64,000 nt of DNA, from IMG/VR virus record IMGVR_UViG_3300027985_001265, positions 1-64,000 of that record; one strand, written 5' to 3'. The notes beneath the pieces were generated by a model. The model was not told where the DNA came from. It worked only from the letters and a program-made list of their open reading frames with translations, and ran no database searches. How positions within the stretch are numbered: position 1 is the first letter of the stretch; every line of letters starts with the position of its first letter. Below are positions 40,712 to 61,177 of this stretch, piece after piece. Source of the stretch: a virus. The position numbers and the translations under genes were made by a program.

Positions 40712-41212
40712 TTATGCTGCCTCAAAATTTCTGTGTGCAATAGGGTATAGCCGAATGTTGCTTACAAACTGAGAAGGTATTTCAGAAGGTTTAATCCTAT
40801 CAGGATGATACTCCTTACAATTGTAGCAGGGTAAGCAGTCCGCCCTTGGATTATTTAACCAGGAGTTTTCAAGACACTGATCCCGGTAAATACAATCCCA
40901 GGTATCGGCTGCAGCTTGAATTTTCTCTAGTTTTAATTCATATTTTTTTCTGGAAGCTTTAGCTCTATCAAGTTCTTTTCGCCTGTTAATCTCTTTTTGG
41001 ACTTCCCTGATATGAACAGCTCGACAAGCGTCACAACGTTCTGTCTTCGCTTGATTTGGGGCAAGAGTCAGTATTGTTGGGCAATCAGCACACTTCTTCT
41101 GAATCAGTTTGACTCTACCTTTAGGATGTTCTGGACAATAATATGTCCCGTTTACTCTTAACTTTATAGTATCTTGTGTCAAATGGCAGCCGCAGGTCAT
41201 TTCATAAATCAT
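40712..41212 (-). CDS. Cys-rich multi-zinc-finger protein (paralogue of 37937-38500)
   Basis: CGCH, CPEH, CADC, CDAC, CxxxDQC, PCYNC. Confidence 0.7.
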   Translation of the reverse strand: MIYEMTCGCHLTQDTIKLRVNGTYYCPEHPKGRVKLIQKKCADCPTILTLAPNQAKTERCDACRAVHIREVQKEINRRKELDRAKASRKKYELKLEKIQAAADTWDCIYRDQCLENSWLNNPRADCLPCYNCKEYHPDRIKPSEIPSQFVSNIRLYPIAHRNFEAA

Positions 41213-42168
41213 TTGAATACCTCTGGAAGTTCTTCCTGTAATTCAGCCAGGACCGGTTCCATTAGTATCCGAATCTGGGGGTGTGCAACTTTGCTTGTCC
41301 GAAGTCTTAGCATGTGTTTCCACTCGGATAAAGGGGCTGTGCAGACGACCTCTGTCTTGAGAGAATTGGGGAGGACGGATCTGGCAAATTGAGGTTGCCA
41401 GCCTTTATCCAGTAAGTCTTCATAGGAGTCTTTTGCATTTTTACATGCCCATAACCATTCAGAAGGTGCTATCATCCAGTCTTCATCTCTACGACCAAAA
41501 CGGCTTCTCCAAGCAGTTTCATAATCAGACCAGTCACCAACCCATATATTACCCACCCAAACTGGGAGAATGAATTCCATCCCTTTATTCCCATAGTTCA
41601 CATACCGGGTGCTTTCCTGGCTATATGCCCAGGGGCGATGCCTGACCATTTCATGGGTAACACCTCGATCTGTGATAAACCTGCAGGTCCGGGTAGCATG
41701 GATAAGTTTTTCTTCTGGATCAAGAGATATTTCAGGAAGAATAATGGCAATTTTTTTATCCACAATAAAGTAATCAGGGAAAATTTCAGGGTATGTTTTA
41801 ACAAAATAATCCTGGATGGCTTGCATACCAGTAGGATACTTTATAGCAGTATGTTTTAATACAAATTCTAACCAAGCCCTGAAATTTCCTGAAACGATAA
41901 AAACACCTTTCTTGTTGGAAAATCGAAGATACCCAGAATCAGAAGAGTCTTTCAAAAAACTCCAAGTTTCTTTACTGACTTGAAAAATTCTGTTTGCATG
42001 TTCCAGGACAGAATAATGTCCAGCCTTGGTGATCATTTGAACAAACCGATTGGCAGAGTCTTCTGTGATTTTGTCTTCGGACTTGTAGCAGGTCCGGCCA
42101 GCCAGCTCTATCAATTTTATTGGATCAGATTCCCGAAGGAACTGATGAGATTGTTCAATAACTTTCAT
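41209..42168 (-). CDS. thyX: FAD-dependent thymidylate synthase
   Basis: 'AGRTCYKS', 'GHYSVLEH', 'RGVTHEMVRHR...SQESTRY', 'ARSVLPN', 'AHPQIR'. Confidence 0.93.
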   Translation of the reverse strand: MKVIEQSHQFLRESDPIKLIELAGRTCYKSEDKITEDSANRFVQMITKAGHYSVLEHANRIFQVSKETWSFLKDSSDSGYLRFSNKKGVFIVSGNFRAWLEFVLKHTAIKYPTGMQAIQDYFVKTYPEIFPDYFIVDKKIAIILPEISLDPEEKLIHATRTCRFITDRGVTHEMVRHRPWAYSQESTRYVNYGNKGMEFILPVWVGNIWVGDWSDYETAWRSRFGRRDEDWMIAPSEWLWACKNAKDSYEDLLDKGWQPQFARSVLPNSLKTEVVCTAPLSEWKHMLRLRTSKVAHPQIRILMEPVLAELQEELPEVFK

Positions 42169-42488
42169 TTTGGTTCTCCATGTTTATAAACCTTCCGCAT
42201 TCTAAATTCCTCCCGTTTAGCTTCATTCCAGTTGCTGACAGGTCGAAGATAACCAACTACCCGGGAGTATACTTCGGTATGTTGACCAAAGTTTTTATCA
42301 TTCTCCCAGCAATCGGGGCATTTGAAATAGTATTCTTCATCCCGTTTACCGATGACCCCATCTTTAATTTCAATTTGGGTTGGTCCGGTACGTTCCAAAT
42401 GGATAGTGAAGTCTTCTCCACAATCCATACAGGTACAATTAACAGCAGCATACTGATGCTCGCCAATTTTTTCAGAAAGTTCTTTCAT
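42165..42488 (-). CDS. Stand-alone class III RNR (NrdD) C-terminal-like zinc-ribbon protein
   Basis: CxxC...CxxC plus 'TEVYSRVVGYLRPVSNWNEAKREEFRMR'. Confidence 0.75.
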   Translation of the reverse strand: MKELSEKIGEHQYAAVNCTCMDCGEDFTIHLERTGPTQIEIKDGVIGKRDEEYYFKCPDCWENDKNFGQHTEVYSRVVGYLRPVSNWNEAKREEFRMRKVYKHGEPK

Positions 42489-42589
42489 TTGGTTTTCCTT
42501 AATTAAAGTCAAAAGTTCTAAAGACCATTTTTATTGAATGATGACAAATCTGACGATAGGTATAAATTGAGATGAGAAAGAAAAATAGA

Positions 42590-42617
42590 AAAGGTTCTCA
42601 GGGAGTTGAGAACCTTT
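42590..42617 (-). terminator. Terminator downstream of the integrase
   Basis: AAAGGTTCTCA/TGAGAACCTTT stem. Confidence 0.7.
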
Positions 42618-42627
42618 ATTTAAAATA

Positions 42628-43797
42628 TTAAATTGTTTTCTTGAGTTGATCCAGGTAGTCGGCCCACCATTGCATCATCTTGGTTCTTTCAGGTAAATAC
42701 TCAGCATGGTTATATGCAGCCTTTACCTTATTTCGTTCTGCATGAGCAAGTTGCATTTCAACATAAGAGGTATTCCAGCCGTTTTCATTTAATAATGTGG
42801 AAGCCATAGCTCTAAAACCATGACCACACATTTCAACTTTTTCATACCCTAATCGACGTATTGCAGCCAAGACGGTATTTCCACTCATGGGTCGGGAATC
42901 TGTCATGATAGATGGGAAAAGGTATTTGGACCTATGTTCAGTATAAGGTCGAAGATCTTCTATGATTTGCAAAGCTTGAATAGATAACGGGACAATATGT
43001 GGCCGGCGCATCTTCATCTTCTCTGACGGTATTTTCCAGACAGAGTTAACGGTATCTATTTCCGACCATTCTGCTTGGCGTAATTCTTTGGGACGCACAA
43101 ATACCAAAGGTGCTAATTTTAAAGCACACAGGGTAATGAATTGTCCGGTGTACCCATCAATAGACCGGAGCAAAGCACCTACTTCTTTTGGGTCTGTGAT
43201 GGTAGCCATGTGATTAATTTTTGTTGGTTTTAACGTATCTTTTAGAGCAGCCGTGACATCGTATTGGGCTCGCTCTGTAATGACGGCATAACGAAAGATT
43301 TGGCCACATGTTTGCCGTAAACGATGGGCTGTTTCATGAGTCCCTCGTTCTTCGACTATCCGCAAAATATTTAAAATATCTAAGGGTCCAATAGCATCAC
43401 AGACTTTTGATCCAATGAAAGGGAAGGCGTGTGTCTCCAGACGGGCCAATGTTCTTTTTGCATGAGTAGGCTCCCACCCAGGTTCTTTGGTATTGTACCA
43501 CTCCCGGGCAACAGCTTCAAAAGTGTAACCGATGACGGTATGTTTTGTAGGCTTGGGGTCAATACCGTCAGCGAGCTGTAATTTAGCCTCTTGACATTTA
43601 GCCCTGGCAGCCTTTAATTTGACTGTTGGGTACACCCCAAAGGCTAGTGTTTTGCGTTTATTGTTAAAGCGGTAATCCATACGCCAGTATTTTTGTCCGG
43701 TGGGCATTACCAGAATGTATAGACCATTACCATCGGCAAGCTTGTATTGCCTGTCCTGGGCCTTAGCATTACGGATAGCAGTATCTGAGAGTTTCAT
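42628..43797 (-). CDS. int: P4-family tyrosine integrase with arm-DNA-binding domain
   Basis: N-terminal 'YKLADGNGLY..V...G.K.WR..YR...KTLAFGVYP'; catalytic R (VRPKE), K, HGFR, H (LAH), Y (AAYN). Confidence 0.95.
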   Translation of the reverse strand: MKLSDTAIRNAKAQDRQYKLADGNGLYILVMPTGQKYWRMDYRFNNKRKTLAFGVYPTVKLKAARAKCQEAKLQLADGIDPKPTKHTVIGYTFEAVAREWYNTKEPGWEPTHAKRTLARLETHAFPFIGSKVCDAIGPLDILNILRIVEERGTHETAHRLRQTCGQIFRYAVITERAQYDVTAALKDTLKPTKINHMATITDPKEVGALLRSIDGYTGQFITLCALKLAPLVFVRPKELRQAEWSEIDTVNSVWKIPSEKMKMRRPHIVPLSIQALQIIEDLRPYTEHRSKYLFPSIMTDSRPMSGNTVLAAIRRLGYEKVEMCGHGFRAMASTLLNENGWNTSYVEMQLAHAERNKVKAAYNHAEYLPERTKMMQWWADYLDQLKKTI

Positions 43798-44057
43798 GAC
43801 GGTATCTCCTTTGTAAAGTGGTTATGTACCGTCAGATATATCGTCAAGATACTGTTGCTGTCAACGGATTTTAGTAGACTTAGGTAGAAACTAAAAACCC
43901 CTGAGAGCCAGAATTCCCAAGGGTTTTAAAATAAAACTGGATGATATTAAATTACAGTGTGGTAGAGATTCTCACATCCATACTTTTTAAAAAAATCTTT
44001 TATTTTCAGTCTGTTGGTTTTTGAGAATAAGGCTTATACCGTTAAATATACCGTCAA
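43797..44057. other. Putative attP with integrase arm-type repeats
   Basis: (A/G)TA(C/T)CGT(C/T)A copies at about 43826, 43838, 44036 and 44048, plus an inverted copy over the int start (43797-43805); lies between int and alpA. Confidence 0.75.
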
Positions 44058-44062
44058 GCTGT

Positions 44063-44263
44063 TTATGCTGCGTTTTCTTTTTCATCACGTTCTTGGATTC
44101 GTTTTTCGATCCAGTCATTGATTTCACTTTCAACCCAGGCAACAGATCTTTGTCCTAACTTAACAGGCTGGGGAAATTGTTTCAAGGCCAGTAGTTGATA
44201 TACTTTAGCTCGGCATATCGAGGTACGGTCAACGACCTCTTTAATCTTCAGAAGTTTTTTCAT
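44063..44263 (-). CDS. alpA: AlpA-family excisionase / recombination directionality factor
   Basis: 'LLKIKEV..RT.I.R..VY.....FPQPVKLG.RSVAW.ESEI..WI'. Confidence 0.93.
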   Translation of the reverse strand: MKKLLKIKEVVDRTSICRAKVYQLLALKQFPQPVKLGQRSVAWVESEINDWIEKRIQERDEKENAA

Positions 44264-44296
44264 AACTCTCCTTTAATATTTAATCCATTAAAAACT

Positions 44297-44410
44297 TAAA
44301 AAAGAGCACAACCACGTTTGTCTGCCTACGTCCAGGCGTTCGTGTCTGTAGGGGGGAGATAAGCCCCTCGGCAGCGTGAGAATTGTTTTTCATGCCTGCG
44401 CTCTTTTTTA
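44297..44410. ncRNA. Candidate branched small RNA / leader upstream of alpA
   Basis: Closing stem TAAAAAAGAGC/GCTCTTTTTTA enclosing three hairpins; GC-rich island in an AT-rich intergenic region. Confidence 0.5.
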
Positions 44411-44415
44411 AAAAT

Positions 44416-44577
44416 TTAATCAGAAAAATTATCAGGATGAGCTGGATGCCAAGAGTCATCCTTTTCAAATTGTTGTGACTCCATGGCATTTTCTGGTAAT
44501 AAGGGTTCTAAATAATCATCAGCTAATCCTGGCCAGAGGTCATAATTTTTACAGTCATCTATACTTATGAAAGCCAT
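44416..44577 (-). CDS. 53-aa acidic hypothetical protein (MAFISIDDCK...)
   Basis: Read manually; GGAG RBS. Confidence 0.45.
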   Translation of the reverse strand: MAFISIDDCKNYDLWPGLADDYLEPLLPENAMESQQFEKDDSWHPAHPDNFSD

Positions 44578-44660
44578 AATCACTCCATTAATAACCTGCC
44601 GGATTGAGGAACCCGACTAATAATCGGGTCGATAACTTTATACCCCTACCGGCAGGTTTG

Positions 44661-44837
44661 TTATTCAGGTGGTGGATCCTCAGTGTCTTGAAACAAAATC
44701 CAGAGAAAGAGTACCAGGATTGCTGCTGGAGCTATAAAGATAATCCAGTGCATAACAAGAGCCACCAAAGTCAAACCAATGAATAAGGCTAAAATAATGC
44801 CCAAGGCTCCAACGACCTTGGACAGGTTGCCCAGCAT
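44661..44837 (-). CDS. 58-aa membrane protein (MLGNLSKVVG...)
   Basis: Read manually; start overlaps the upstream stop; two hydrophobic segments. Confidence 0.55.
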   Translation of the reverse strand: MLGNLSKVVGALGIILALFIGLTLVALVMHWIIFIAPAAILVLFLWILFQDTEDPPPE

Positions 44838-45256: not shown

Positions 45257-45303
45257 AGGTTTTTTGCATCCTTTATATAAGGGTATTTAAAGAAGAGATA
45301 TGT

Positions 45304-45330
45304 AGGGCCTCATCACTATGATAAAGCCCT
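45304..45330 (-). terminator. Hairpin after the SSB gene
   Basis: AGGGC..CATCA/TGAT.AAGCCCT. Confidence 0.45.
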
Positions 45331-45342
45331 CACCGGTTAAAT

Positions 45343-46128
45343 TTAAGCTGCTGCACCACCAAAAAGTGATGCACCACTGGCTGCCTGTTCAGGGGTGGTT
45401 GTACCCCCACCGAAAGTTCCACTGTTGCCCGGGCCGGCAGTAACATTGACCGCAGTTTTGGAGGTCTTGTCTTTGACCTGTCCGGTCCATTTTTCAGCCC
45501 ACTGGCCTTTAAATACAGGCTCGGTCATTTTGGCTTCAGCTTCGGTGACGGTTAGGCCAGAGGGATAATGGAAGAACTTGTCGATCTCATTCTCATTCCG
45601 GGTTTCTGTGGAATCCACATAATTACCAGTAGCGTCTTTGACCCGTTTGCTAACGGTCTGTTTGATGACACCGGCAAAGATCTTTTTACCCAGGAGTTCT
45701 GTAATCATGGGTACTTCGGTGGGAACTTCTTTTCTCTGGGAGAAGTCGTAGAGCATAATTGTCTTCACTTCTGATTTGACCTGGGCGATGTGTTTGCCGA
45801 GGGTCATCAGGCACAGATGGTCAGCCAGCTCAAATCCGGGCAGATATTTCTTGAGGGTCTTCTGCCCGGTCTTGGGATCTTTGGCCATGTAGAAATTCTG
45901 GCCACCTTTTGCTGTTGCAGAGGACAACCAGAGTTGTGCTTTGAGTTCCTTACCGTCTTCAGTCTCAAGGACAAGGTTGAGGGCTTTGGCACCGCCATCG
46001 GAGATGGAGCCGTAGGCCAGTTTAATATCAAAGGGGTAAATAGCAGAATCCAGAGTTCCATATCTGGAGCCGCCAAGTCTGTCGCCATCACTCTGGATGG
46101 ATATATCGGTTGTAAGGGTATCAAACAT
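45343..46128 (-). CDS. ssb: Single-stranded DNA-binding protein (N4 gp45-like)
   Basis: 'DRLGG', 'YLPGF', 'TRNENEIDKFF', C-terminal 'SLFG'. Confidence 0.9.
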   Translation of the reverse strand: MFDTLTTDISIQSDGDRLGGSRYGTLDSAIYPFDIKLAYGSISDGGAKALNLVLETEDGKELKAQLWLSSATAKGGQNFYMAKDPKTGQKTLKKYLPGFELADHLCLMTLGKHIAQVKSEVKTIMLYDFSQRKEVPTEVPMITELLGKKIFAGVIKQTVSKRVKDATGNYVDSTETRNENEIDKFFHYPSGLTVTEAEAKMTEPVFKGQWAEKWTGQVKDKTSKTAVNVTAGPGNSGTFGGGTTTPEQAASGASLFGGAAA

Positions 46129-46388: not shown

Positions 46389-47132
46389 TTAAGCTGCTAC
46401 GGGTGTTCCGTAATATTCATGAAGCCGGTTCAGCAAGAGTTGTGCATCATTGTCGATGAAGGTCTCTTTGGTATCCCACATACCCATGCTGGCACGGATC
46501 CGTTCGTTAACTGTTTCTTTGGTGAGCTTGGTCTGATACACATGCTTGAAACCAAGCATCTCCTCTTCCGGGGTAATAACCAAGAGAGGGTTTTTATAGG
46601 GTTCCAGGTCGGTGATTGCCATACGGCGGGCTGAAACCACAGTTGAGAAATAGGCTTCAATCCCATTGGCCTGGAGAGCACCTTTAACCGGTACTTTTCT
46701 CTCCATGACCATAGCCGTTTTATTCAGGATGGCCTGGACATGAGCCAGGATAATGACGTTGCACTTGGACGGGGCCACATACTTCTGCATCAGGTTTTTA
46801 AAATATTGTTGGTACTGGGACCATCCGGCCATAGTATCTGCTGAAGGAAGAACGTGGATAGATTCAAACATGTCCATGAGGAATGTCAGAGTGTCAATAA
46901 TGATGGTGTGAAAATTCCCGGTTACGTCTGCATGGGCAAATCCTTCATAGACCTGATAGGGGTCTGTGATGGAGAATTGCCTGAATTTAGCCGGGAATGG
47001 ACATTTTTTATTTGACTCGCAGTTGAGGTACATGATCCCCTCGGGGTTTTTTAAATTCCGGAGAGACGCTGTTTTGCCCCCGGAGGATTCCCCTACGATA
47101 AGGACTAAATTGTCATTGGTAGGCGTTGCCAT
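46389..47132 (-). CDS. AAA/Sak4-like ATPase (N4 gp44-like)
   Basis: Walker A 'GESSGGKT', 'IIDTLTF', 'VPVKG', 'IEAYFS'. Confidence 0.9.
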   Translation of the reverse strand: MATPTNDNLVLIVGESSGGKTASLRNLKNPEGIMYLNCESNKKCPFPAKFRQFSITDPYQVYEGFAHADVTGNFHTIIIDTLTFLMDMFESIHVLPSADTMAGWSQYQQYFKNLMQKYVAPSKCNVIILAHVQAILNKTAMVMERKVPVKGALQANGIEAYFSTVVSARRMAITDLEPYKNPLLVITPEEEMLGFKHVYQTKLTKETVNERIRASMGMWDTKETFIDNDAQLLLNRLHEYYGTPVAA

Positions 47133-47150
47133 TGGTTTATCTCCTATTTT

Positions 47151-49328
47151 TTAGGCAGCCTGTTTAGCTGCTCGTTTACCTATTGCGGTTGTGGCCGTGA
47201 CCAAGATGGTGGTATCAATCTCTTTTTCAGAGAGCTTGTCCGGCATACTGCTGTTGAGTCCCATGACTTTTTCCCGGATGTCCGGGTAACTGAAACCCAT
47301 ATCTACCAGGAGCATGGCGTAGCGTAGCAGCCGGTTGTTCCTATTGCCTTCAAATGATCCCTGTACGAACCATCTCTCCAGATTGGAGAGACTGGCAAAG
47401 TCCACCATCTGCTGTTTACGCTCATCATTTTTACGGGTCTTGGCGATAAACAGGCGGGCATCCAGGAGCTGATCTCCATGGTTATAGATATACTGGCCGG
47501 CATCGTTGGTGAGCCATTTGCGGCATCTGTCTATGGCAGCCGTATCTACCTCGAAAGGCAACCATTCGAAGATGTTCCGCATGAATGCCCGGTATTCTTC
47601 GGCGGTCATGGACATTTCATAATTCAAAGGCATGATCAGCCGGAATCTGTTATTTTCCGGGGTATGCCGTTTGGTGGTATAGGCCATGAACTTGTAATCT
47701 TTCAGGAGGCTCTGGACGATGTCCAGCTTGGCTCCCTTGTCGATATCCAGGACCACCATGTTGAATCCCGGGATCATGTGATCCTCATCCCGGTGTCCAT
47801 TGGTTGAACGGTGATTGATCCAATGATGATTCTTTAGTTGGGTCAGAACATGTAGTTTGTCGAAGGGGGCCAGGTCATTTTTATAGCCGTCAGAAATACT
47901 CTGGGAATGGGCCACCTTCAGTTTATCCAGGTTGGTTTCGGTCAAGGATGAGCCCTTAAAGAATTCGACACCTTCTTGCATATACTGTTTAACGACAATG
48001 TGATTCTTGTAGCCCCAGGATATAGCGTTGGTTACCATATCCCTTCTCAGGACTACCGAAGCTTTCTTATAATACGGCAGTTTTTCGATGAGATCGGACT
48101 GAGTCAGTTCATTGGGAACCTGGGCCAGATACCGGGCCATCTTTGCATACGGGGGATCCTGGTGGAACATATTATAAAAGCTCTCACCTGAGTCCTCGGC
48201 CAGCTTAATAGCGGCATACAGGTTCTCCATACTGATCTCAGCGTGACCATCCACATAGGCGAAGGCGCCGGCCAGCTTCAATACTTTGAAGTACCGATGT
48301 TCCATCTCTGCCCGGACTGTTTCTTCGATACCTCTGTACGGGGCAGCCCGCCTTTTACAATCCCGATGATATTCAAAGAGTTCAATGCCCACATCTTTGG
48401 TGAGAATGATCTCCCGGCCGAAGTTGGTGACATTGGCCAGTTTGCTAAAATAGACTGCAGCATCTTTAAAAACATCATTGGTGTCCTTGCTGCTTTGCAG
48501 TGCGTACATTTCAGCACCGGTCATATCCTCGTCTTCCACGAAGTCATCCATGTAAAAGGTCCAGCATCTGCGGGCCAGTCCTGTTTCTTCAAGTTCGTTG
48601 AAGTTCTCTTCAACTTTGCTTCCATCAAAGACTTTGCATGGGGTGCCGATGGCCAGTAAGTTTGCCGGGGTGGTTCCGTCTATTTCTTCAATACGGGTAT
48701 TCTCTTTGGTATTTTTGGTCAGAGCTTCTTTGGCTTCACCAATATCAAAGAGTTCCAGGTAGGCAGATAGAGCTTCGTTGGAAGCCAGGAGATTCATGCC
48801 TATTTCGTCAATCTCCAGATTCAAAGCACCGGCATTCGCAATGAGCAGTTTCTGTCTTAACTGCTGGATGGCCGGAGCAGTAGCTTTCTGGAATGAGAAT
48901 CTCATTTTACCGAGGTTTTCATATTCACGAAGTACACCAGCTTTCATATCGTCGGGGTCTTCCCCGGCTATGTACGCTCTTCGTACAGCGATCTTTGCTA
49001 TGTGTTCATCTGCCACAATTGGCAGTACCTGATCCAAGAAAATCTTCTTGAAATGCTTCAAGACGCCTTTCTCGATCATGTTTATTGAATAGTTTTTGCC
49101 AACACCCGAGGGTACCAGATTGATCAGGAAGGCATTGATGGGGAGTGTTCCCCGGACTTCTGTTTTGATCTTGGCTCTCATGGTGGATGCGGCCTTGCAA
49201 AAGAAGTATCCAAGCAATGCTCGATACATCCCCATGGGGCCTGCAGGATTTTTCTTTTTCATAGCCCCAGCTATTTTCTCGGTAAATGGGTGATATTCCA
49301 TCTCCGAATAATCTTTTTTCATAATCAT
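47151..49328 (-). CDS. DNA primase (N4 gp43-like)
   Basis: 'SGVGK', 'DEIG', 'LDID', 'YTTKRH', PriCT-like 'GNRNNRLLRYA'. Confidence 0.9.
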   Translation of the reverse strand: MIMKKDYSEMEYHPFTEKIAGAMKKKNPAGPMGMYRALLGYFFCKAASTMRAKIKTEVRGTLPINAFLINLVPSGVGKNYSINMIEKGVLKHFKKIFLDQVLPIVADEHIAKIAVRRAYIAGEDPDDMKAGVLREYENLGKMRFSFQKATAPAIQQLRQKLLIANAGALNLEIDEIGMNLLASNEALSAYLELFDIGEAKEALTKNTKENTRIEEIDGTTPANLLAIGTPCKVFDGSKVEENFNELEETGLARRCWTFYMDDFVEDEDMTGAEMYALQSSKDTNDVFKDAAVYFSKLANVTNFGREIILTKDVGIELFEYHRDCKRRAAPYRGIEETVRAEMEHRYFKVLKLAGAFAYVDGHAEISMENLYAAIKLAEDSGESFYNMFHQDPPYAKMARYLAQVPNELTQSDLIEKLPYYKKASVVLRRDMVTNAISWGYKNHIVVKQYMQEGVEFFKGSSLTETNLDKLKVAHSQSISDGYKNDLAPFDKLHVLTQLKNHHWINHRSTNGHRDEDHMIPGFNMVVLDIDKGAKLDIVQSLLKDYKFMAYTTKRHTPENNRFRLIMPLNYEMSMTAEEYRAFMRNIFEWLPFEVDTAAIDRCRKWLTNDAGQYIYNHGDQLLDARLFIAKTRKNDERKQQMVDFASLSNLERWFVQGSFEGNRNNRLLRYAMLLVDMGFSYPDIREKVMGLNSSMPDKLSEKEIDTTILVTATTAIGKRAAKQAA

Positions 49329-49357
49329 ATCCTCTCAAATTATTTTTGTTTTTTCCC

Positions 49358-51550: not shown

Positions 51551-52150
51551 TCATGCTACTCTCCTTTCCGTAAGCATGCGGGCAGTGTTGGAATATTTCA
51601 GGGCTTCATAAGCTCCGAGGCTATCTGCAACATGTTCAAACTGTCCTTTGCCCATGGCTTTCCCTATCGGGTAATAGACCATATCAGTTCTTTGGAGTTT
51701 CCCGGTTTTTTTGCTGAAGACATTTTTCTGTGAAGTCTGCCATCCATACTTCTTACAGGCGGTCATCATCATTTCGGTTTTAGAGGCGTTTTCTTTGCCT
51801 GTCATGGCCTTTTTCACCTCTGCTGGTGTTGCCCATTCAACCGGAATATTCAACGTTGTAAACAGGGTTGTCGTTAACGCTACGGCCATGCCTAAACTTT
51901 TAGCTGCCGAAGCTGATTGACTGCTCGATGGGGGCAGCTCTGCAAGGACTCCTTGGATATTATATTTATTGACCAGCTCCGTGAGTTTCGCTGCGATATG
52001 GGTAATTCTCTGGACATCATCATCGGCAACCCGTAGCAGTTTATTCTTGGTTTTCTGGGTTTGAATTGTACCCAGATCTACAACTCGGCCATGTTGATTG
52101 ATGACACTACAGCCGAAGTTGCTGAATCCAGGATCAAGACATAGAATCAT
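51551..52150 (-). CDS. RuvC-like Holliday junction resolvase (N4 gp46-like)
   Basis: 'LDPGFSNFG', 'AELP', 'VKK..TG...ASK', 'EHVADSLG'. Confidence 0.88.
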   Translation of the reverse strand: MILCLDPGFSNFGCSVINQHGRVVDLGTIQTQKTKNKLLRVADDDVQRITHIAAKLTELVNKYNIQGVLAELPPSSSQSASAAKSLGMAVALTTTLFTTLNIPVEWATPAEVKKAMTGKENASKTEMMMTACKKYGWQTSQKNVFSKKTGKLQRTDMVYYPIGKAMGKGQFEHVADSLGAYEALKYSNTARMLTERRVA

Positions 52151-52677
52151 GCGACCTCCTTTATAAAGTCTATTCGTTTCTGAATTTCTGTTTTGAAATC
52201 ATCGAGGCCAAGATCGTTGTGAATAACAAAATCATAGTTGTAATTTTGATACTGGGTATCTCCGGAACTGGTGAAAGATTTTGCGGCTTCTTGTTCAGCT
52301 TTTTCCTGTCGGATCCAGACAGAAAAACATTTAACGGCGTTCCATAAACACCAGTCTCTAAGTTTCTGTATCTCTTCAGGTTCCCGGATATTGGTACAGA
52401 AAAATTCTGTTTCAAATGCTTCCCCGAGTCGAATTTTTTTACAGATTTCTCGGAAAGGAATATCATCCCAGGCAGTAGATAGATCTTTCAAATCTGAGAG
52501 AAGTTGTCGGCTCTTTGCATCTTTGGTTCCATCCCAGTCAAAAGCGTCTTTAGCTAGGTTTTTGACCCAATCAATGCTGGAGTATTCGGTAACTGTTTTC
52601 TCAGTGATCTCACGAAGAAGTTTAATGAAGGTGTCTTTCCCTACCCGGGGAGCACCGTTGATAATCAATACGATCAT
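52147..52677 (-). CDS. P-loop (d)NMP kinase-like protein
   Basis: 'INGAPRVGKDT', 'WDGTKD..SR.LLSDLK', 'IREPEEI', 'YDFVIHN'; AAGGAG RBS. Confidence 0.75.
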   Translation of the reverse strand: MIVLIINGAPRVGKDTFIKLLREITEKTVTEYSSIDWVKNLAKDAFDWDGTKDAKSRQLLSDLKDLSTAWDDIPFREICKKIRLGEAFETEFFCTNIREPEEIQKLRDWCLWNAVKCFSVWIRQEKAEQEAAKSFTSSGDTQYQNYNYDFVIHNDLGLDDFKTEIQKRIDFIKEVA

Positions 52678-52699
52678 TGTTTTTCTCCTTAATATTTTA

Positions 52700-53400
52700 A
52701 TAAGCCCCTGCATAAGATTCCGCCTATGCTTTAACGGACTGGCCGTCCGTGTCATTTGTCTCCCAGAGTTAGTCTAAGATTATTGTCCCAGACACAGTAT
52801 CATCAGGTTTTGATCCTGACTCCCTTCGCTCCAGCCCTCGGCAAGCGATCCAGATTTGAACTGGCCCTTACATAAGATACTGAATACCTTATGTAAGATG
52901 CAGTTCTATCACCAGAGTTTAATAACCGGTTACGCATCCGGTGCGGGTTTCTCATTTACCGCCGACTATCCGTTTAGGTATAATAGCACCAAGGCGTTTG
53001 CATCCCTTTTTTTGTGTCGGGCTTGTTCACCGACTCCAGGACTTCCTCATGAAAGCGTCCCTCTCACTCACCCACACTTTATTTAAGCGACTGTGGGCTT
53101 AACCGTCATATAGACCCCGCTTTTGTGTCAGGTTTTTGAATACTGACTCCGGGACAGCTTTATAAAAGATGCCCTATGCTATGGCTCTCCATGCAGAGGT
53201 GTGACCATAGCTGTTGCATGGAACAGACAAAATACTGCAATGATTTCTTTCAAGAAAATTTGATGTTAAACTAGAATTGAAATTACTTAGAGGGAGTTCC
53301 CTGGTTTGCAGACTCCAGGACTTCGACATACTCGGTTGGAATGATTATCGAATTTCCACAGTTTAGACAAAGACAGAATGTCCATGCGGGGTCTATACAA
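52700..53400 (-). ncRNA. Large structured non-coding RNA candidate of unknown class
   Basis: No credible ORF; about a dozen stems; 12-bp long-range helix; repeated stem-GGA-stem module; G-U pairs favour the - strand. Confidence 0.65.
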
Positions 53401-53437
53401 GAAAGTTTTAATGTATTGCTACATTGGCATTTTTCTT

Positions 53438-53689: not shown

Positions 53690-53825
53690 TTTGTTGTCTC
53701 TCAATAAAAGCCAAAGCAGCATCAATTTCTTTCAGTTTTTCTGTATCTTCAGGGAAGTCTTCTCCTTCAAACCAACCTCTATAATCCATAAGAGCTTCAT
53801 GGATTACATTTAGATGTTCTTTCAT
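53682..53825 (-). CDS. 47-aa hypothetical protein (MKEHLNVIHE...)
   Basis: ATGA overlap with the DNAP stop; GGAGG RBS. Confidence 0.55.
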   Translation of the reverse strand: MKEHLNVIHEALMDYRGWFEGEDFPEDTEKLKEIDAALAFIERQQNE

Positions 53826-56440
53826 GCAGCCTCCTTTATTTTCTGTTTATCCAAATATTCTTTGGCTCCTTTCTTACAGGCGTCTTTAATTTCCTGTTTA
53901 GAGCCATTTACAGGAATACCAATGGCATTGGACCAACTCGGCCAGAACACATCCAGAGCTGAAGATATCTTGACGACAGGATGCTTTAACTCAGGTAGGT
54001 CATCCCAGGCCATGCACTCAATCAGATTTGTATTAACCCATTCAAGAATTTCCGCAGAATCCGGGAACATGAGATAGATGGCATCGTGGATGGTCCCAGA
54101 AGGTAATACCTTGTACCGATACGGGGAAGCCCAGACTCGTTCCATGAACTCATTCAAGGCCCGGATAGTGAGTACGCAGTAGCTTTGGGTAGCAGCGTTC
54201 CCAGCTGATCTGGCTTCCTTCTTGGCACCGTATGGCATTTTACAGTCTGTACCAATGACACACTTGGCCAGCAGGGGAGTTCTGATTCTGGCACCAAAGG
54301 CCATAGGGATGTATCCACAGGTTTTAGCGTCTTCCACCAGGCCTGCCACCCAGTCATCTGCCACTTTGTAAAGTTCATGATATTTGGCCTCAATGGTTTT
54401 GGCTTTTTCTTCAGAAAAACCGTTGTTATTCATCAGAGTGATAAAACTGCCCCCGTAGGTCAGAGCAAAGGTAGGGGCCTTAGAATCCTGTCTTAGTGGT
54501 TTATATAACTTCTTGATGGAGTTAATACTGTTCACAGAATTCGGATCTATACCAGCCATTTGATCCCCAAAATAAGCATAAGCTCGAAGGCAATGACCAT
54601 CGAACCCGTCGGTGTAAACCTTTAATTTGTTTGGGTCTTTGGTAAGTAATGCATTGATCTTGTCTTCAAGAGAGTCAAAATCTGACCCAGCGAAGATCCA
54701 GCGTTTGATCGGCTCAAAACAGTCTTTGATGATCTTAGCATAAATGGAACTAGAAGGAATATTTTGTAGGTTGGGATTGCTGCTGGATAAGCGAAGCGAT
54801 TGTGTGCCGCCAAGGTTGAAATTACCGAAGAGTCTCCAGGAACCGTCCGGGAGTTGCTGGGCATTTTCAAAAGCCGGGATAAATGTGCTGAGAATAATGC
54901 TTACATCAGCGTAACCTCGAAGATTTTCAATGATCTCAATGATCTCCGGATTCTGGGTATGGTTGACCAGTTTCTTCAGAGTTTTACTTCCAGTTGCTGG
55001 TTGTTTCCCATCAGTCAAATCAATTACCGGCAAATCAAAATAATCATAGAGTAGGAACCGGACTTGATTATCAGAACCAGGGTTAAACTCTTCCAGGTCT
55101 TTCCGGACTACAGAGTCGTCAATGGTGTAAACTTTCTTCTTGGCTTCAGCAGTCTTTTTTTCTGCCTTAGCCATTAATAGTTGATAATACACCTCCTGAA
55201 TGTGTGAGTTGTTTTTGAAGAAATCCTGGTGTTTCTCTTTGATCGTTGTGAGTTTGGTCTTGGCTTCTTGGACTTTTACAGGATTGATCGGCATCCCGCA
55301 TAGCTCCATGGCCAGAAGAGATTTGACAGCAGGTTTCATTACTTCATGATAGGCTTGTTCTTGTTGATCTTTTACCAAGGTAGGCCAATGTTTCTCTGCC
55401 ACATACCAGGTAGCCAGACAGTCCCGAAGGTTGTATGTCAGCAGGTCTTTAATTGGGATCTTTGAAGTATCTGTGGTGTCTTCGGCGTAATTACCGGTGT
55501 ATTCAGCAGAGTTCTCCTTGAGGCCCAGGGAATTCTCTACGGCATTATTGGTGGCCAGATAGGTGATCAGCTTGGTATCTTCAAAATCCCTTGTCAGGGT
55601 GAAGATTCCTTCTTGCATTCCAACATAATCGGCCAGGTTTTTCATCCATAGCTCATAGGTAATCACCTTCATATCATAGCCGGCATTCTGGTAAACCAGC
55701 TTGCCTTTATAGGTATCAAAGAAATTCCACAAACATACCCGGGTGAAAGCCCTCAATGGGTTATCAAGACCGTAATCAGCAAAACGATTGCGATCTACGG
55801 CCATTGCTACTCCTTCATGCTTGTTCCAGGCAAAGGATATGGTACTGATCCCAGCATTCCAGAATTCAAGGCTAAGAGCCTCAATATCACAAGTCAAAGC
55901 TGGGTACTGGTGGAGCTCATCAAAGGCTCTTTTAACTTCTTCCTCTGTTCTGGGAAAGATCGCCCGGTGTATGATTGTCTGACCTGGCGATACTTTTTTC
56001 CCATCAATGTGTCTCTGCAGGGCGGCCAGGGATCTGTCCATTTTTCCTTGGATCATCGGATTATAAACCAAGGCTTGAAAGTTAGGGGCCAGGATTACCT
56101 TCATATGTCCATAGCCTTTTACTGTGCAAGGAACAATTTCCCCATAGAAGGGGTCCACCTTTTTAGCGTTGGTCAGGTATTTGAAATATGTTCCATCAGC
56201 TACGAACAGAGTTTTGACCCCCAAGTGATCAAGTTCCGGCAAAAGGTCATTAAGATATGCCTTTGCATGTTTCGCCGTGCATTTCTTGAGGGTTTCATAA
56301 CTCAATTCGTAAGCGGTAAATCTATCCGGGCTCACTTTTAATTGTTTGAGATAATGATGCTCTAATTTGACTCTGTTGAGCCCGGTAGATTTGATTAGTA
56401 TTGCAATATCAGGATTTGAGCCAAATAGAATAGATTGCAT
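53822..56440 (-). CDS. Family A DNA polymerase (N4 gp39-like)
   Basis: Exonuclease motifs 'DIE', 'QNAGYD', 'YNLRD'; 'RLSSSNPNLQNIP'; A 'DFDSLE', B 'RQDSKAPTFALTYG', C 'IHDA'. Confidence 0.96.
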   Translation of the reverse strand: MQSILFGSNPDIAILIKSTGLNRVKLEHHYLKQLKVSPDRFTAYELSYETLKKCTAKHAKAYLNDLLPELDHLGVKTLFVADGTYFKYLTNAKKVDPFYGEIVPCTVKGYGHMKVILAPNFQALVYNPMIQGKMDRSLAALQRHIDGKKVSPGQTIIHRAIFPRTEEEVKRAFDELHQYPALTCDIEALSLEFWNAGISTISFAWNKHEGVAMAVDRNRFADYGLDNPLRAFTRVCLWNFFDTYKGKLVYQNAGYDMKVITYELWMKNLADYVGMQEGIFTLTRDFEDTKLITYLATNNAVENSLGLKENSAEYTGNYAEDTTDTSKIPIKDLLTYNLRDCLATWYVAEKHWPTLVKDQQEQAYHEVMKPAVKSLLAMELCGMPINPVKVQEAKTKLTTIKEKHQDFFKNNSHIQEVYYQLLMAKAEKKTAEAKKKVYTIDDSVVRKDLEEFNPGSDNQVRFLLYDYFDLPVIDLTDGKQPATGSKTLKKLVNHTQNPEIIEIIENLRGYADVSIILSTFIPAFENAQQLPDGSWRLFGNFNLGGTQSLRLSSSNPNLQNIPSSSIYAKIIKDCFEPIKRWIFAGSDFDSLEDKINALLTKDPNKLKVYTDGFDGHCLRAYAYFGDQMAGIDPNSVNSINSIKKLYKPLRQDSKAPTFALTYGGSFITLMNNNGFSEEKAKTIEAKYHELYKVADDWVAGLVEDAKTCGYIPMAFGARIRTPLLAKCVIGTDCKMPYGAKKEARSAGNAATQSYCVLTIRALNEFMERVWASPYRYKVLPSGTIHDAIYLMFPDSAEILEWVNTNLIECMAWDDLPELKHPVVKISSALDVFWPSWSNAIGIPVNGSKQEIKDACKKGAKEYLDKQKIKEAA

Positions 56441-56451
56441 CTATACCTCCG

Positions 56452-57222
56452 TTAAGCTGCTATTTTTTTGAAACAGTAATCAGGGATACGTCCGGCGGAT
56501 ATTTCGTTTTTTACAAAAGCAAGTCCGTCATCCAGCAGGTAAAGACCATTACCATAAGCAAGAAAGTATTGTTTTCCTAAATTTGTAGGTTCTTTTCTGG
56601 TTCTGCATTTTTCATAAGGCTTAGGTACGACTTTCAAGTACCCTTTTTTTACAAGGTGGTTTGTTGTTACAGTCGGTCTTAACCCTAAAAGAGAAAATTG
56701 CCGTTGTACTGAATTTGTTTCCATATTTTTAGGGCCTTTTGTTACTGACACCTTTGCGCAGGCTTTAGCCTGGTTTGGGAATGATAAGATACATTTCGTT
56801 TCTTCAGGCTGTTTCTTTGTTTCCTGGACGGGGCAGCCTTCTATTGAAGCAGCAAGTAGCCGAAGAGCTTTAGGGATGTTTGAAGGATCAATCAATTCAG
56901 CCCGGGCCTTCATCAATTCAAGCTCCATTTCATTGAAGGCTTTGATGAAGTCCACTTTGAAGCCCAAAGCTTTTTCCCCGGTAAAACCAAAAACAAGGAC
57001 AGCAAAGGCATCCCGGTCCATGTCATACATGGGTCTTTCTTTTCCCTGTTTATCCAGGTAGTTAGTCTCCTGAAAGTTCAGGGGGCCTCTCCCAATGGAG
57101 TTCAGAGTATCCTGAATGGTCTCAATGGATTGAAGAACATTGTCATGACGTTTATCAAATACATCCGACACTTTCAGGGAATTGGTCACAGGTTTACCAG
57201 CTTTTTCAGTTACAAGTTTCAT
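56452..57222 (-). CDS. Rha-family phage regulatory protein with antirepressor-like C-terminus
   Basis: 'TNSLKVSDVFDKRHDNVLQSIE', 'Y.DKQGKERPMY.M.RDAF..LV.GFTGEKA..FK..FI.AFNEME'. Confidence 0.9.
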   Translation of the reverse strand: MKLVTEKAGKPVTNSLKVSDVFDKRHDNVLQSIETIQDTLNSIGRGPLNFQETNYLDKQGKERPMYDMDRDAFAVLVFGFTGEKALGFKVDFIKAFNEMELELMKARAELIDPSNIPKALRLLAASIEGCPVQETKKQPEETKCILSFPNQAKACAKVSVTKGPKNMETNSVQRQFSLLGLRPTVTTNHLVKKGYLKVVPKPYEKCRTRKEPTNLGKQYFLAYGNGLYLLDDGLAFVKNEISAGRIPDYCFKKIAA

Positions 57223-57246
57223 TTTATATTTTCCTCTCAAAATACA

Positions 57247-57687
57247 TTATGCGTAAATTGCTTGCCATTTCAGGGCGATTTCAGTTCCTGCTTCAATTGT
57301 CGGGTAGCTCAGTTCTTTTCCATCATCCAAATGTTTGGCAATGAGGACCAGGGTTGAGAATATCCCGGGGTTATACCGGAAGGGTGAATTTTCTATCATA
57401 TCCAGACAGAAAGAGATCAAAGATCCAATATGTGCAGGCTCCTGCCACCAGCCAATTTCTTTAAGCCAGTCTTCAATGTGTTTATCCACGAAGGCTGCTT
57501 CTCTGTCTCCCATTTTGGGCAGGGTCAGCAGATCAGGTATAACTAGTTTCTGCAGTTTTCGTTGAAGACCATCCAACCGGCTATTTTCTTTGGCTTTCAT
57601 GATCATGGGTACTCCATATATCAAGGCCAGTTCAGCCAATTTTCTTTTTTCTTGCTTCGATAACACCAGGCTTTCCTTATGCTGCAT
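57247..57687 (-). CDS. Hypothetical protein
   Basis: ORF in operon; start uncertain. Confidence 0.6.
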   Translation of the reverse strand: MQHKESLVLSKQEKRKLAELALIYGVPMIMKAKENSRLDGLQRKLQKLVIPDLLTLPKMGDREAAFVDKHIEDWLKEIGWWQEPAHIGSLISFCLDMIENSPFRYNPGIFSTLVLIAKHLDDGKELSYPTIEAGTEIALKWQAIYA

Positions 57688-58288
57688 TAAAGTTTTTGAT
57701 GATGGCCTGTGCTTTTTTTGACACCTCATGTTCTGTTTTTTCTGTAGGTTTCGGGATGAATTTTCCCAAATCCGGGTGATTTTTGACCAGGGGATTTACT
57801 GTCCGGAAGGTGTCTACAATTTCCATGAAGGCATTTACCGTCTCCTTGATTTCACACTCAATATGATTAAATGTTTTGATAGCTTGAATGGTTAATGCTT
57901 TCATTTTCTCGTTGTATTCAAGCATATCTATTAAGCGGCCATTATAAAAAGCGGAAGTACCCGGTGTTTCCAAAGCAGGAGTAAATTCAAGAAGAAGGTA
58001 CGCCGGGCCATTTTGAATTATCCATGGTTTTCCTAAACGACCATTATTATCTTCTTGAGCAATATGGAAAGGATACACAGTTCTGGTATATCCATATTTT
58101 TTCAATATACTAAGTTCTTCTTTAGTAAACTGTTTCAAGACTTCTTTTTTGAGAAAATCAAGAATACTTTTTTTCATACTTGCCAGTTCTTTACCCGGAA
58201 TGGATTCATTCATCTTCTTCCGGACATGGGCTTCAATGTTATTTTTGATCTGCTGTTTCAGGGTTTTATTCAAATGACGAGTTGCCAT
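57677..58288 (-). CDS. Hypothetical protein (possibly Nmad5-like)
   Basis: GGAGG RBS; 'FRTVNPLVKNHPDLGKFIP' C-terminal pattern. Confidence 0.6.
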   Translation of the reverse strand: MATRHLNKTLKQQIKNNIEAHVRKKMNESIPGKELASMKKSILDFLKKEVLKQFTKEELSILKKYGYTRTVYPFHIAQEDNNGRLGKPWIIQNGPAYLLLEFTPALETPGTSAFYNGRLIDMLEYNEKMKALTIQAIKTFNHIECEIKETVNAFMEIVDTFRTVNPLVKNHPDLGKFIPKPTEKTEHEVSKKAQAIIKNFNAA

Positions 58289-58297
58289 TGCATCCTC

Positions 58298-58840
58298 CTA
58301 TATTGTTTTGGCCAGTAGAACTTGAGTTACGATCATTCGTTTCAAGTACCTAAGATTATTTTTGTTATCAGCCAATACCTGTTCAATTTTTTCTTCAGGC
58401 AAAGGCTCTGCGATATTAAAGACTTCGGAATCTATTTTGGGCATATACTGCTTGAGGGCTGCCGGGAACAGTCTGTCCAGATCCTCTGTATGTCCTGCCA
58501 TGGCCAGGAAGATACCAACCAATATCTTTACCCCAGTCATAACTTCCTGGTCTTTAAAAGAGCTTTTTTCCAGCAATTTTTGGACATCTTCATAAAGGTT
58601 TACATGTAGGATACGATTACACTTATGAGGGTCCGGAGGTTTTGGAATCGGCCACCATCTCCCTGCAAAGAAGAATGTTGGAGTTCTTGCATTAAGCATC
58701 TTTTGATTGGTTTCAGCGAGCTTCCACATCTCTTCTATCAAAGTTTTTTCAGCATGAGCATCCAAGGCTTTCAAAGTGTTATTCTGGACTTTCCGAAGGT
58801 ATTCCATCCTTTCCCGTTCGAGGTTTCTGAGTTTTGCCAT
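58298..58840 (-). CDS. N4 gp38-like hypothetical protein
   Basis: Position between helicase and DNAP. Confidence 0.65.
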   Translation of the reverse strand: MAKLRNLERERMEYLRKVQNNTLKALDAHAEKTLIEEMWKLAETNQKMLNARTPTFFFAGRWWPIPKPPDPHKCNRILHVNLYEDVQKLLEKSSFKDQEVMTGVKILVGIFLAMAGHTEDLDRLFPAALKQYMPKIDSEVFNIAEPLPEEKIEQVLADNKNNLRYLKRMIVTQVLLAKTI

Positions 58841-58867
58841 GACTATTTCCTTTCATGGTTATAAGTC

Positions 58868-61177
58868 CTATGCAGCCATAGGACTTCTGTATTTGGCCGG
58901 CAGATCTCCGAACATGACCACCCTCTCCCGAGCACGACTGATTGCTACATAGAGCATCCGGGCAACGTCAGACGGGATATTGCATCGGCCGATATCATAG
59001 AGGTCAATGAAGACTTGATCATATGAAACTGCCCTGGGATTTATGGACAGTACTGGCATACGGGGATCTGAGATCCAGCCAGGTATTTTTGATATTGAAG
59101 TACCGGGTCCAGAGTTCTTTACGTTCATGGGGATTATCTTGCATAGCTTTAGAATTGGCTTCTTTGGCTATGGCCTGCATACGGGCTTTGGTATCCATAG
59201 GATTGTTCGGTAGAAACAGAACCTGCTCTCCATTGATTTCCGCATTTCTGCCAAGAACCTCTTCTATGAGTATTTCATCCCCCAGCCATGTGATTGCCAC
59301 CTCGCTGTCTACGGGAGTAACTGTGCCACCAGCGATAATGGGATTATTGGTGATGGCCAGTTCCCCTTCCTGAAAACTGTTGCCAAGGCCTTTTATCTTC
59401 CGCAAGTGCATGTTGTATTCCTGCACTCTAATATTACTCCAGGCTAAGACTTTTGCGCTGTTGATGGAAAATAGAGGGTTTATAAAAGCCTTTTCCATCT
59501 CCTCTTTGAAAGTGGGGCCGTCCACCAGGAGTACCTTGTCGGAAAGTAGAATATCTTGAAATACTTGAGTCTGGACCACTTCACGGAAAGCTGATGCTGC
59601 TTCCAAGATAGGACCGTCATGTCGCATGACTTGGCTCATAATTGCGGTAGGTACCTTGTGCATAAGAAGCTGCATATTGGACACCTTCTGTTGTACCGGA
59701 GCCAACTGAAATACGTCCCCGATCAGGACAGCCTTTGATGTTTTCTGAAGCGATTCCTCTAAAAACCTAAAGGTATCCACGTCCAGCATGCTGGCTTCAT
59801 CCATGATGACGACAGTATCTTTTAAATAGGTAAACCGGTTTGTCTTCTGAAGACTCTCCTTTCCTGTCCGATAATTTGGTACAAGTTTCAATCCAAGTGT
59901 GGAATGAATGGTATTCACCGTTGGGTTTTTGGATAACTCCCTGAGAACTGCAACGGCCTTGTTGGTTGTGGCCGTTAATACGATCTGAAAATCCTGTTTA
60001 TTCGGATCTTCACACATTACGGTCTTGAGTACCTTGTACTGCTTAGAGATGCTGGAAAGCATCTTTTTGATCATGGTGGTTTTTCCCGGAATGTTCAGTA
60101 AAGGCGTCACTCTTTACCAGTTCTTTTATGAACTTCTGCATATTTCTATGCAGCCCAGACCATATCTTCATCTTTTCTATAGCAATCAGAGCAGACACCC
60201 CCTCTTTGAATCCAAGGAGAATCACTGCGTCTGTTGAAAATATTTTGACAGTGTTTACAGGTAAATTTTACATACCTGCGTTTATTGATAACTTCGGTAG
60301 TTATTAACCGAGAACCAAGGATAGAAGTTAATTCCTGTAACTTCTTTTTTTCTTGTAATTTTCCCGTAGCAATTCCACCAAGGCGCCTCACTTTATCTTG
60401 TCTTCCTTGTTTGATGGAATGTTGCATATTTTCTTTATGAGTGGACCACTCTAAATTTGTATTAAAATTATGGAGTCCGTTGTTATCAATATGGTTTATA
60501 AAAGGTTTATTATCAGGATTTGGGATAAAAGCTTCAGCAACTAGTCTATGCACAGAGAATCGTTTTGTTTTTCCATTTATTGAAAAAGTAACCCTATGAT
60601 AAGAAGTGTGTTTTCTTTTATCCACATCTGGCTTTAATTCTCGAATACCTGTTCTTGAACTGTTTGGCATTGAGAACACTCTGCCTTTATTTGAAATTTG
60701 ATATCTACCTTCATAACCTACAATGTCTTTGATAATTTCTGACATGATTTACCTCATTACTTTAATTATTAAACCCTGTGTAAGGTTTAATAAAAATAAA
60801 TAGGTAAGTCTAGTTTCACATCAGCTTTAAAAAGAGTCCCCCATTTCCACATCACTTGATGTGTACGGCTTTCGCCTGGTCGTTGAACCTTCTCCATACT
60901 ATTTTAGATTAGGAGCTTGGCTGCTGATTGCCCATTAATTATCCGTTTACTTGTCAAACCTTTATAAGCTCTTTTCAGGCGTATTGTGGTAAAACGGCTT
61001 TAGGGGTTTCCAGCAATTAAAGGGATTTATTTTGAGGGGATCACTCCCCAAAGGAACCTATTACAAACAAGTTCCGGCAGCCCCCTGGATGATCATGTAT
61101 CGTTCATTGGGATTCTTCAGGAACTTCATGAATGTCTTGATGACATTCTTCTGTTCATCGGTGAGTTCAAAGTCCAA
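58868..61177 (-). CDS. SF1B (Dda/RecD-like) DNA helicase, N4 gp37-like; intron-split and with a 1-nt frameshift near the 3' end
   Basis: Exon 1 at 61177-61070 (MDFELTDEQK...IQGAAGT) joined to exon 2 from 60086 (GKTT) gives Walker A. Also 'DEASM', 'IGDVFQL.PV', 'TVHKSQG', then 'YDQVFIDL...YVAISRAR' in a second frame. Confidence 0.9.
60087..61069 (-). mobile_element. Group I self-splicing intron
   Basis: 5' exon ends in U and the intron ends in G. P1 GGAACU/GGUUCC. P AAUUGCUGGAAA, Q AAUCAGCAG, R GUUCAACGACCA, S AAGAUAUGGUCU. Confidence 0.92.
60146..60745 (-). CDS. Intron-encoded NUMOD4-HNH homing endonuclease
   Basis: 'KDIVGYEGRYQISNKGRV' NUMOD4; 'VHRLVAEAFIPNP...NHIDN...N...NLEW....EN..H'; C-terminal CxxC pair. 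Confidence 0.92.
   Translation of the reverse strand: MSEIIKDIVGYEGRYQISNKGRVFSMPNSSRTGIRELKPDVDKRKHTSYHRVTFSINGKTKRFSVHRLVAEAFIPNPDNKPFINHIDNNGLHNFNTNLEWSTHKENMQHSIKQGRQDKVRRLGGIATGKLQEKKKLQELTSILGSRLITTEVINKRRYVKFTCKHCQNIFNRRSDSPWIQRGGVCSDCYRKDEDMVWAA

Follow-up and report, generated by a model that had tools for sequence, protein, structure and literature searches.

The stretch analysed here, referred to below as the window, is the initial 64 kb of one 73,758-bp contig of an uncultured N4-like (Schitoviridae-type) phage (IMG/VR record IMGVR_UViG_3300027985_001265). Its plus strand carries the virion RNA polymerase together with the virion and lysis genes, and its minus strand carries two subunits of RNA polymerase II (RNAP II), an AAA ATPase, a Dda-like helicase, a family A DNA polymerase (PolA), a RuvC-like resolvase, a deoxynucleoside monophosphate (dNMP) kinase, an exonuclease, a primase, a Sak4-like ATPase and an N4-type single-stranded DNA-binding protein (SSB). 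Within the minus-strand block there are also a tyrosine integrase, an AlpA protein, a Rha protein and an HxlR-type regulator, the last of these on the plus strand. Eleven proteins of this genome, ten encoded inside the window and one beyond it, end in two alanines (Ala-Ala), and these endings are the subject of the analysis. They are listed here with the minus-strand features discussed beside them.

40712..41212, minus strand: cysteine-rich open reading frame (ORF) of 166 aa ending in NFEAA, with no Pfam or PHROG match
44063..44263, minus strand: AlpA-type excisionase/regulator of 66 aa ending in KENAA (PF05930, E = 2e-20)
45343..46128, minus strand: N4-type SSB ending in SLFGGAAA (phrog_743, E = 3e-64)
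46389..47132, minus strand: Sak4-like AAA_24 ATPase ending in EYYGTPVAA, with Pfam and PHROG matches
47151..49328, minus strand: DNA primase ending in KRAAKQAA (phrog_2135)
53822..56440, minus strand: PolA ending in IKEAA
56452..57240, minus strand: Rha-family regulator ending in KKIAA (PF09669)
57677..58288, minus strand: ORF of 203 aa with no assigned function, ending in NFNAA
58868..60110, minus strand: second exon of the Dda-like helicase, ending in SPMAA after frame correction (phrog_325 covers both pieces)
60146..60745, minus strand: intron-borne NUMOD4/HNH homing endonuclease ending in MVWAA
69890-70207 of the genome, outside the window: eleventh Ala-Ala ORF, ending in NFKAA
42628..43797, minus strand: tyrosine integrase, the contrast case, ending in LKKTI without an alanine tail (phrog_1, E = 3e-65)
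51551..52150, minus strand: RuvC-like resolvase ending in RRVA (phrog_159)
52147..52755, minus strand: dNMP kinase ending in KEVA (phrog_139)
60752..61079, minus strand: group I intron core interrupting the helicase gene (Rfam RF00028, 59.5 bits, E = 1.5e-12)

The ten ORFs of the window had been named in a first-pass annotation of this DNA. Translation of the ORFs confirmed that each ends in Ala-Ala where it had been placed, and the family assignments made at that stage agree with the Pfam and PHROG matches. The Val-Ala ends of the RuvC-like resolvase and the dNMP kinase, which are possible weaker variants of the tail, were likewise found as described, as was the absence of the ending from every plus-strand ORF and from the integrase, whose last residues are KKTI. 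Eight of the eleven carriers have clear family matches and three are ORFans. The three proteins with the common ending N-F-x-A-A (40712-41212, 57677-58288 and genome 69890-70207) have no assigned function, and paralogy between them was rejected because no BLASTP match was found among them.

For the helicase the SPMAA ending was borne out, albeit with a correction: in the record the last 50 codons are out of frame with the body of the gene, and the ending is reached when a base at 59026 is removed. Logan contigs from two independent runs have one base fewer at this position and give a single frame (HKSQGS-SYDQVFID...SPMAA). The gene is thus probably intact, and the apparent frameshift stems from a single-base error or variant in the record. 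A low-depth contig from one run has 10 bases at the helicase stop (58861-58872) replaced by 267 other letters, a strain variant that would alter the end of the helicase gene or the spacer. The HNH ORF follows the group I intron core immediately on its 3' side. An intron-encoded Ala-Ala tail on the unspliced helicase was considered and rejected, as read-through from exon 1 ends in GAAGTCL and two stops.

Of roughly 59 minus-strand proteins, all products of early and middle genes, 11 (about one in five) end in Ala-Ala, as against none of the 36-38 late plus-strand proteins (Fisher P = 0.006 for the comparison of the strands). Alanine accounts for 6.6% of minus-strand residues and the internal Ala-Ala dipeptide for 0.49%; the 11 endings among 59 compare with 0.3 expected (binomial P = 9e-15). 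Alanine exceeds its baseline at just the two terminal positions (26% and 17%) and is back at that level further in. The string GCN-GCN-stop occurs in 16 copies on the minus strand, 11 of which are gene ends while the remainder is at or below chance, and GCWGC has an ordinary frequency genome-wide. Since the out-of-frame copies are at chance level and GCWGC is ordinary, the signal lies in the protein and not in the DNA, and a DNA motif was rejected as the explanation on these grounds. The first-pass annotation had also argued, from the varying codons, that the endings are no DNA repeat, and this stands.

Alignments of SSB, Sak4 and primase show that their tails are short additions past the conserved family ends and outside the folds. 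Every one of about 25 aligned relatives of the N4-type SSB ends in SLF[AGSN], to which the present SSB adds GAAA. Similarly, every aligned Sak4 ends in EYY[x], beyond which the present Sak4 has a six-residue tail; extensions of 5-6 residues read GTPVAA here, GVSVTA and GVSVQLN in the two closest relatives, and GVAVAA in one other. Primase ends in the alignment read KR, KRAA and KRAAQAA, and the present one KRAAKQAA. In an AlphaFold model of Sak4 (predicted local distance difference test, pLDDT, 91.8) the last helix stops at residue 241, and residues 242-247 form a coil of lower confidence. On the Sak4 model and the alignments of the three proteins, these three tails are predicted to be exposed and unstructured. 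The exonuclease, with its conserved functional C-terminus (G.L.L), has no such tail.

The ending recurs in homologues of several carriers. Among primase homologues, the 16 nearest (48-70% identity) include 12 with an Ala-Ala end, which persists while the residue before it varies (QAA, FAA, EAA, KAA, SAA, AAA); distant homologues mostly stop at KR, and 19/120 primase homologues overall have the ending. Among PolA homologues the count is 22/120, including the nearest (76% identity), and two at 70-71% end in AG. Full-length Rha orthologues end in IA, AA or TA. In the AlpA family, represented by 103 single-domain proteins, Ala-Ala is the commonest C-terminal dipeptide (8/103) and 24/103 end in alanine, so that the AlpA tail is part of a wider family habit and not peculiar to this phage. 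This suggests, at the level of protein endings, that excision regulators in general may often be tagged.

We then extended the count to N4-like phages at large. In 142 non-redundant primase-centred loci the ending is found on 19 primases and on about 2% of the other same-strand ORFs, and in the first 80 of these loci on one of 284 opposite-strand ORFs. Around PolA the same-strand rate is about 5%. Over all N4-like ORFs, Ala-Ala ends amount to about 3-5% on the replication strand versus about 0.4-2% on the late strand. The rate per genome spans 0 to one third, and the extremes are the present genome (11/59) and the contig L337 (IMGVR_UViG_3300011989_000486, 12510-34735), where 8 of 24 PolA-strand ORFs end in Ala-Ala. 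No tyrosine integrase is present in the L337 contig, which IMG/VR classes as a provirus. Ala-Ala tails vary by lineage among N4-like replication modules, and the present genome lies at the extreme. No phage-encoded reader or protease tracking the Ala-Ala-rich genomes was found; only ThyX tracks them, as does the integrase in the first of the two samples described below. We regard the statistical and comparative finding as solid.

The Schitoviridae include integrase-bearing and proviral members, with integrase carriage reported in 54 genomes (PMC10654107). The first-pass annotation had proposed that the endings make up a lysis-lysogeny gate specific to integrase-bearing N4-like phages, and the contrast from which it started, between an AlpA with the ending and an integrase without it, holds in the present phage. 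Among the nine integrase-bearing N4-like genomes that were examined, none has an integrase with the ending, and these integrases belong to at least five unrelated types. The comparison that it had proposed, of Ala-Ala ends with and without integrase, gave a divided result. In a first sample of 23 whole genomes, in which an integrase was defined as a PF00589 match in the same contig, the ending was found in 34/454 ORFs of integrase carriers versus 8/733 of the rest (Mann-Whitney P = 0.001; P = 0.007 after removal of the genomes picked for an Ala-Ala primase). These carriers form just two clades on the primase tree. A second sample drew on 25 contigs, none shorter than 60 kb, which were picked by size before their tails were viewed and were examined over about 22 kb per genome centred on PolA; here "integrase-free" means that no tyrosine recombinase was found. 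It showed no difference, with 7/123 (5.7%) in integrase carriers and 21/443 (4.7%) in the others (Fisher P = 0.64).

Exceptions to the association are G021, G004, L337 and L301, and contigs without a tyrosine integrase reach 8/24 (L337), 4/22 (L301) and 4/38 (G004). Furthermore, the replication proteins of a Moraxella N4-like prophage, which is integrated and encodes an integrase itself, have no Ala-Ala end. This prophage lies at 2,065,269-2,087,407 of the chromosome of Moraxella sp. ZJ142, in a 2.27-Mb contig, and an identical copy is found on a 45.8-kb contig. The link between integrase and Ala-Ala tails was thus not reproduced in the second sample.

Several explanations other than a degradation signal were weighed. 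Chance, a compositional bias favouring disordered, alanine-rich ends, or faulty ORF calling would account for the extra alanines of some tails (KRAAKQAA in the primase, GGAAA in SSB) and fit the three ORFan carriers, but the binomial P of about 1e-14, the restriction of the enrichment to the last two residues, the eight carriers with clear family matches and the recurrence of the pattern in relatives all stand against it. A stop codon stays in place whichever start is chosen, and the Ala-Ala end in the helicase region persists in independent assemblies; we consider the probability of this explanation close to negligible. A cause at the level of nucleotides or translation would have Ala-Ala-stop selected for termination, coupling or mRNA structure in packed operons transcribed by phage RNA polymerases, with the protein end as a by-product. 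In PolA the last codons, AAG GAG GCT GCA TGA, supply a Shine-Dalgarno sequence, a spacer and an overlapping ATGA start for the next ORF; many PolA relatives end in KEAA, a recurrence that the Shine-Dalgarno overlap may explain. Terminal alanine codons strongly favour GCA and avoid GCC, and A is enriched at third positions near gene ends. However, as the first-pass annotation had recognized, the overlap accounts for PolA alone, the other ten stops having no start or Shine-Dalgarno sequence in register. Codon pairs vary between genes, out-of-frame copies are not enriched, late genes packed as tightly have no such ending, and relatives keep Ala-Ala behind varying residues. We find such a cause very unlikely.

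The gate proposed for temperate N4-like phages, in which excisionase and replisome would be unstable, the integrase stable, and the host protease would decide between lysis and lysogeny, follows the logic of phage lambda, whose Xis is unstable, being degraded by Lon and FtsH, and whose Int is stable. The endings of AlpA and integrase in the present phage and the 34/454 versus 8/733 ratio of the first 23 genomes are in its favour. The logic also fits gp33 of mycobacteriophage BPs (PMC4557955). Against these stand the restriction of integrase carriers to two primase clades, the lack of a difference in the second sample, the Moraxella prophage with no Ala-Ala tails and the high counts in L337, L301 and G004; the gate is not supported, and we judge it quite unlikely. 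Alternatively, the tail could be a handle by which some non-protease reader takes hold, or by which ClpX does so, either as a remodelling chaperone or in a way that saturates it. Examples would be help from ClpX in building or taking apart replication complexes, as in the case of MuA, or a ClpXP sponge that spares other proteins or blocks protease-triggered defences. Such a role would suit the presence of the tail on SSB, the most abundant middle protein, and on the core replisome, as well as the recurrence of PolA and primase as the commonest carriers across N4-like lineages; the failure to find a phage-encoded reader tracking the Ala-Ala-rich genomes also points to a host factor. Unrelated regulators, a homing endonuclease and small proteins of no assigned function carry the tail too, however, which fits poorly with a replisome-specific contact, and we think a handle of this kind unlikely.

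With moderate confidence we favour the reading that the Ala-Ala ends are encoded ssrA-like tails read by host AAA+ proteases such as ClpXP, and that the proteins carrying them are probably short-lived by design. The ClpX component of ClpXP binds the ssrA tag's free Ala-Ala-COO-, as the first-pass annotation had stated and as structures document (PMC10638403). Because ClpX is an established reader of Ala-Ala, and encoded ssrA-like tags destabilise a phage repressor, this interpretation is preferred; the fact that the ending is shared by horizontally mobile genes without functional relation (AlpA, Rha, HNH) also argues for a generic host reader and not for a replisome contact. The replisome and recombination proteins, AlpA, Rha, the homing endonuclease and the three proteins of no assigned function would then bear short exposed additions whose free Ala-Ala carboxy-terminus is presented to the axial pore of unfoldase-proteases of the host, mainly ClpXP but perhaps also ClpAP or FtsH. 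Carriers would thereby acquire a built-in, host-dependent short lifetime; the virion proteins have no such tail. The predicted outcome is that replication and excision functions would be cleared when their genes are no longer transcribed, also in cells where the phage has opted for lysogeny.

A number of observations weigh against encoded degrons. The residue before the two alanines is A, V, I, M or W in five of the eleven carriers and polar in the other six (E, N, Q, E, N, K), so that affinity for ClpX may be low, the comparison being made against the Leu of the E. coli tag, which may not be the tag of the host. Natural transfer-messenger RNA (tmRNA) tags do differ, reading PAYAVA in a Sulfurovum metagenome-assembled genome and PAYAKAA in another Campylobacteria genome. 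The Sak4 relatives nearest in sequence (80% identity) retain the extension but end in VTA and VQLN, and none of gp1-gp49 of coliphage N4 has an Ala-Ala ending, which makes the trait dispensable for the N4 life style. The 22 terminal alanine codons are GCA in 14 cases, GCT in 7 and GCC in one, as compared with a usage of 26%, 35% and 34%, a skew that hints at a nucleotide or translation effect as well; in PolA, and there only, the ending doubles as Shine-Dalgarno sequence and spacer of the next gene. Finally, an unstable replisome would be costly for the phage.

Several known systems resemble the proposed one in part. CtrA of Caulobacter carries a natural ssrA-like ClpX degron, and sigma-AntA of Streptomyces reportedly does so too. 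Natural degrons of this kind are termed C-motif 1 (Flynn et al. 2003, cited by the review PMC8138137). Like tmRNA tags and C-motif 1, the present endings are short exposed tails that terminate in a free Ala-Ala, are generic and portable, and are found on unrelated proteins. They differ in that numerous genes of a single phage module encode them, whereas the known tags are added by trans-translation or sit on one regulator; the antepenultimate residue is often polar, and recognition by ClpX is a prediction. The parallel with lambda is that the excision regulator AlpA, and not the integrase, has the putative degron, although the signal and the presumed protease are different and AlpA proteins are often Ala-Ala-ended in many elements (8/103). 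The stability of the repressor of mycobacteriophage BPs is set by an ssrA-like tag (PMC4557955). Both phages encode such a tail on a protein of their own; in BPs it affects stability and lysogeny, while instability is predicted here. In BPs the tag is lost on integration because attP is located within the gene that bears it, whereas the gap between int and alpA in the present phage is intergenic, its integrase is untagged, and the tails are mainly on replication proteins. Tag switching of the BPs type was not found: no Ala-Ala-ended ORF spans the int-alpA gap, the sole non-coding gap of the integration module, and when the region was compared with Rfam, nothing rose above noise that would be a fragment of a tRNA or tmRNA.

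The remaining features of the genome place the phage and supplement the picture of its module.

26778-37142, plus strand: virion RNA polymerase of 3454 aa, with homologues in 83 ORFs of N4-like loci
40033-40419, plus strand: HxlR-type winged-helix regulator (PF01638, E = 3e-24)
42165-42512, minus strand: stand-alone protein of 115 aa (PF13597, E = 7e-13)

In gene set and order the phage agrees with the Schitoviridae: a giant virion RNA polymerase, a two-subunit RNAP II, SSB, primase, PolA and helicase are present in N4 order, and N4-like families are matched (phrog_2051, phrog_2166, phrog_743, phrog_2135). The primase has matches in 471 phage records, all Schitoviridae-type hosts. The phage differs from the cultured members in sequence, the nearest of them sharing only about 45% primase identity. 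No DNA-level match was found among INPHARED phages and no close relative by exact peptides in IMG/VR, and scans of metagenomes and GTDB for close relatives returned only short close contigs or distant relatives. A near-complete copy of the phage DNA is present in two sequencing runs, one of them labelled hydrothermal vent metagenome, and the contig may derive from these runs; among the runs listed with phage DNA none is of RNA. The integrase resembles its gammaproteobacterial homologues (up to 58%) more than those of Campylobacteria (47%), a weak hint, by similarity, of a gammaproteobacterial host. The tmRNA gene encoding the PAYAKAA tag adjoins a homologue of this integrase (the loci concerned, for the two tags, are 2932-3290 of L282 and 1501-1874 of L274).

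The HxlR-type gene is the sole sizeable plus-strand gene within the minus-strand block, and its product is a candidate for the role of prophage repressor in this integrase-bearing phage. The 115-aa protein matches just the C-terminal glycyl-radical end of the anaerobic ribonucleotide reductase NrdD, and its ORF is coupled to a ThyX-like gene. Runs of A at both ends of the record (16 bases at 1-16 and 26 bases at 73733-73758) may be an assembly or library artefact and not true termini.

An encoded ssrA-like tail on a single phage or regulatory protein is already known. We found no report, in the literature searched, of genome-wide or module-wide Ala-Ala tails on replication proteins of N4-like (Schitoviridae) phages, nor an earlier description there of a whole module, with DNA polymerase, primase, helicase and SSB, bearing such tails. 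If the degron reading is correct, the lifetimes of early phage proteins would be programmed and dependent on host proteases. This would bear on the shut-off of lytic programmes, on the way in which temperate N4-like phages escape the toxicity of their replication genes and, via Clp specificity, on phage-host range. Phage enzymes with such tails could also be unstable on heterologous expression in E. coli. A broader version, which we put forward tentatively and consider doubtful, is that many N4-like phages, and the present one to an extreme degree, build a timer read by the host into the entire middle proteome. Their short tails would deliver replisome, recombination enzymes, excision regulator and homing nuclease to ClpXP-type proteases, so that host proteolysis would set the duration of the replication programme and, in temperate members, how thoroughly it is erased when lysogeny is entered or maintained. 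Were this true, it would amount to a general and undescribed layer of control over phage gene products.

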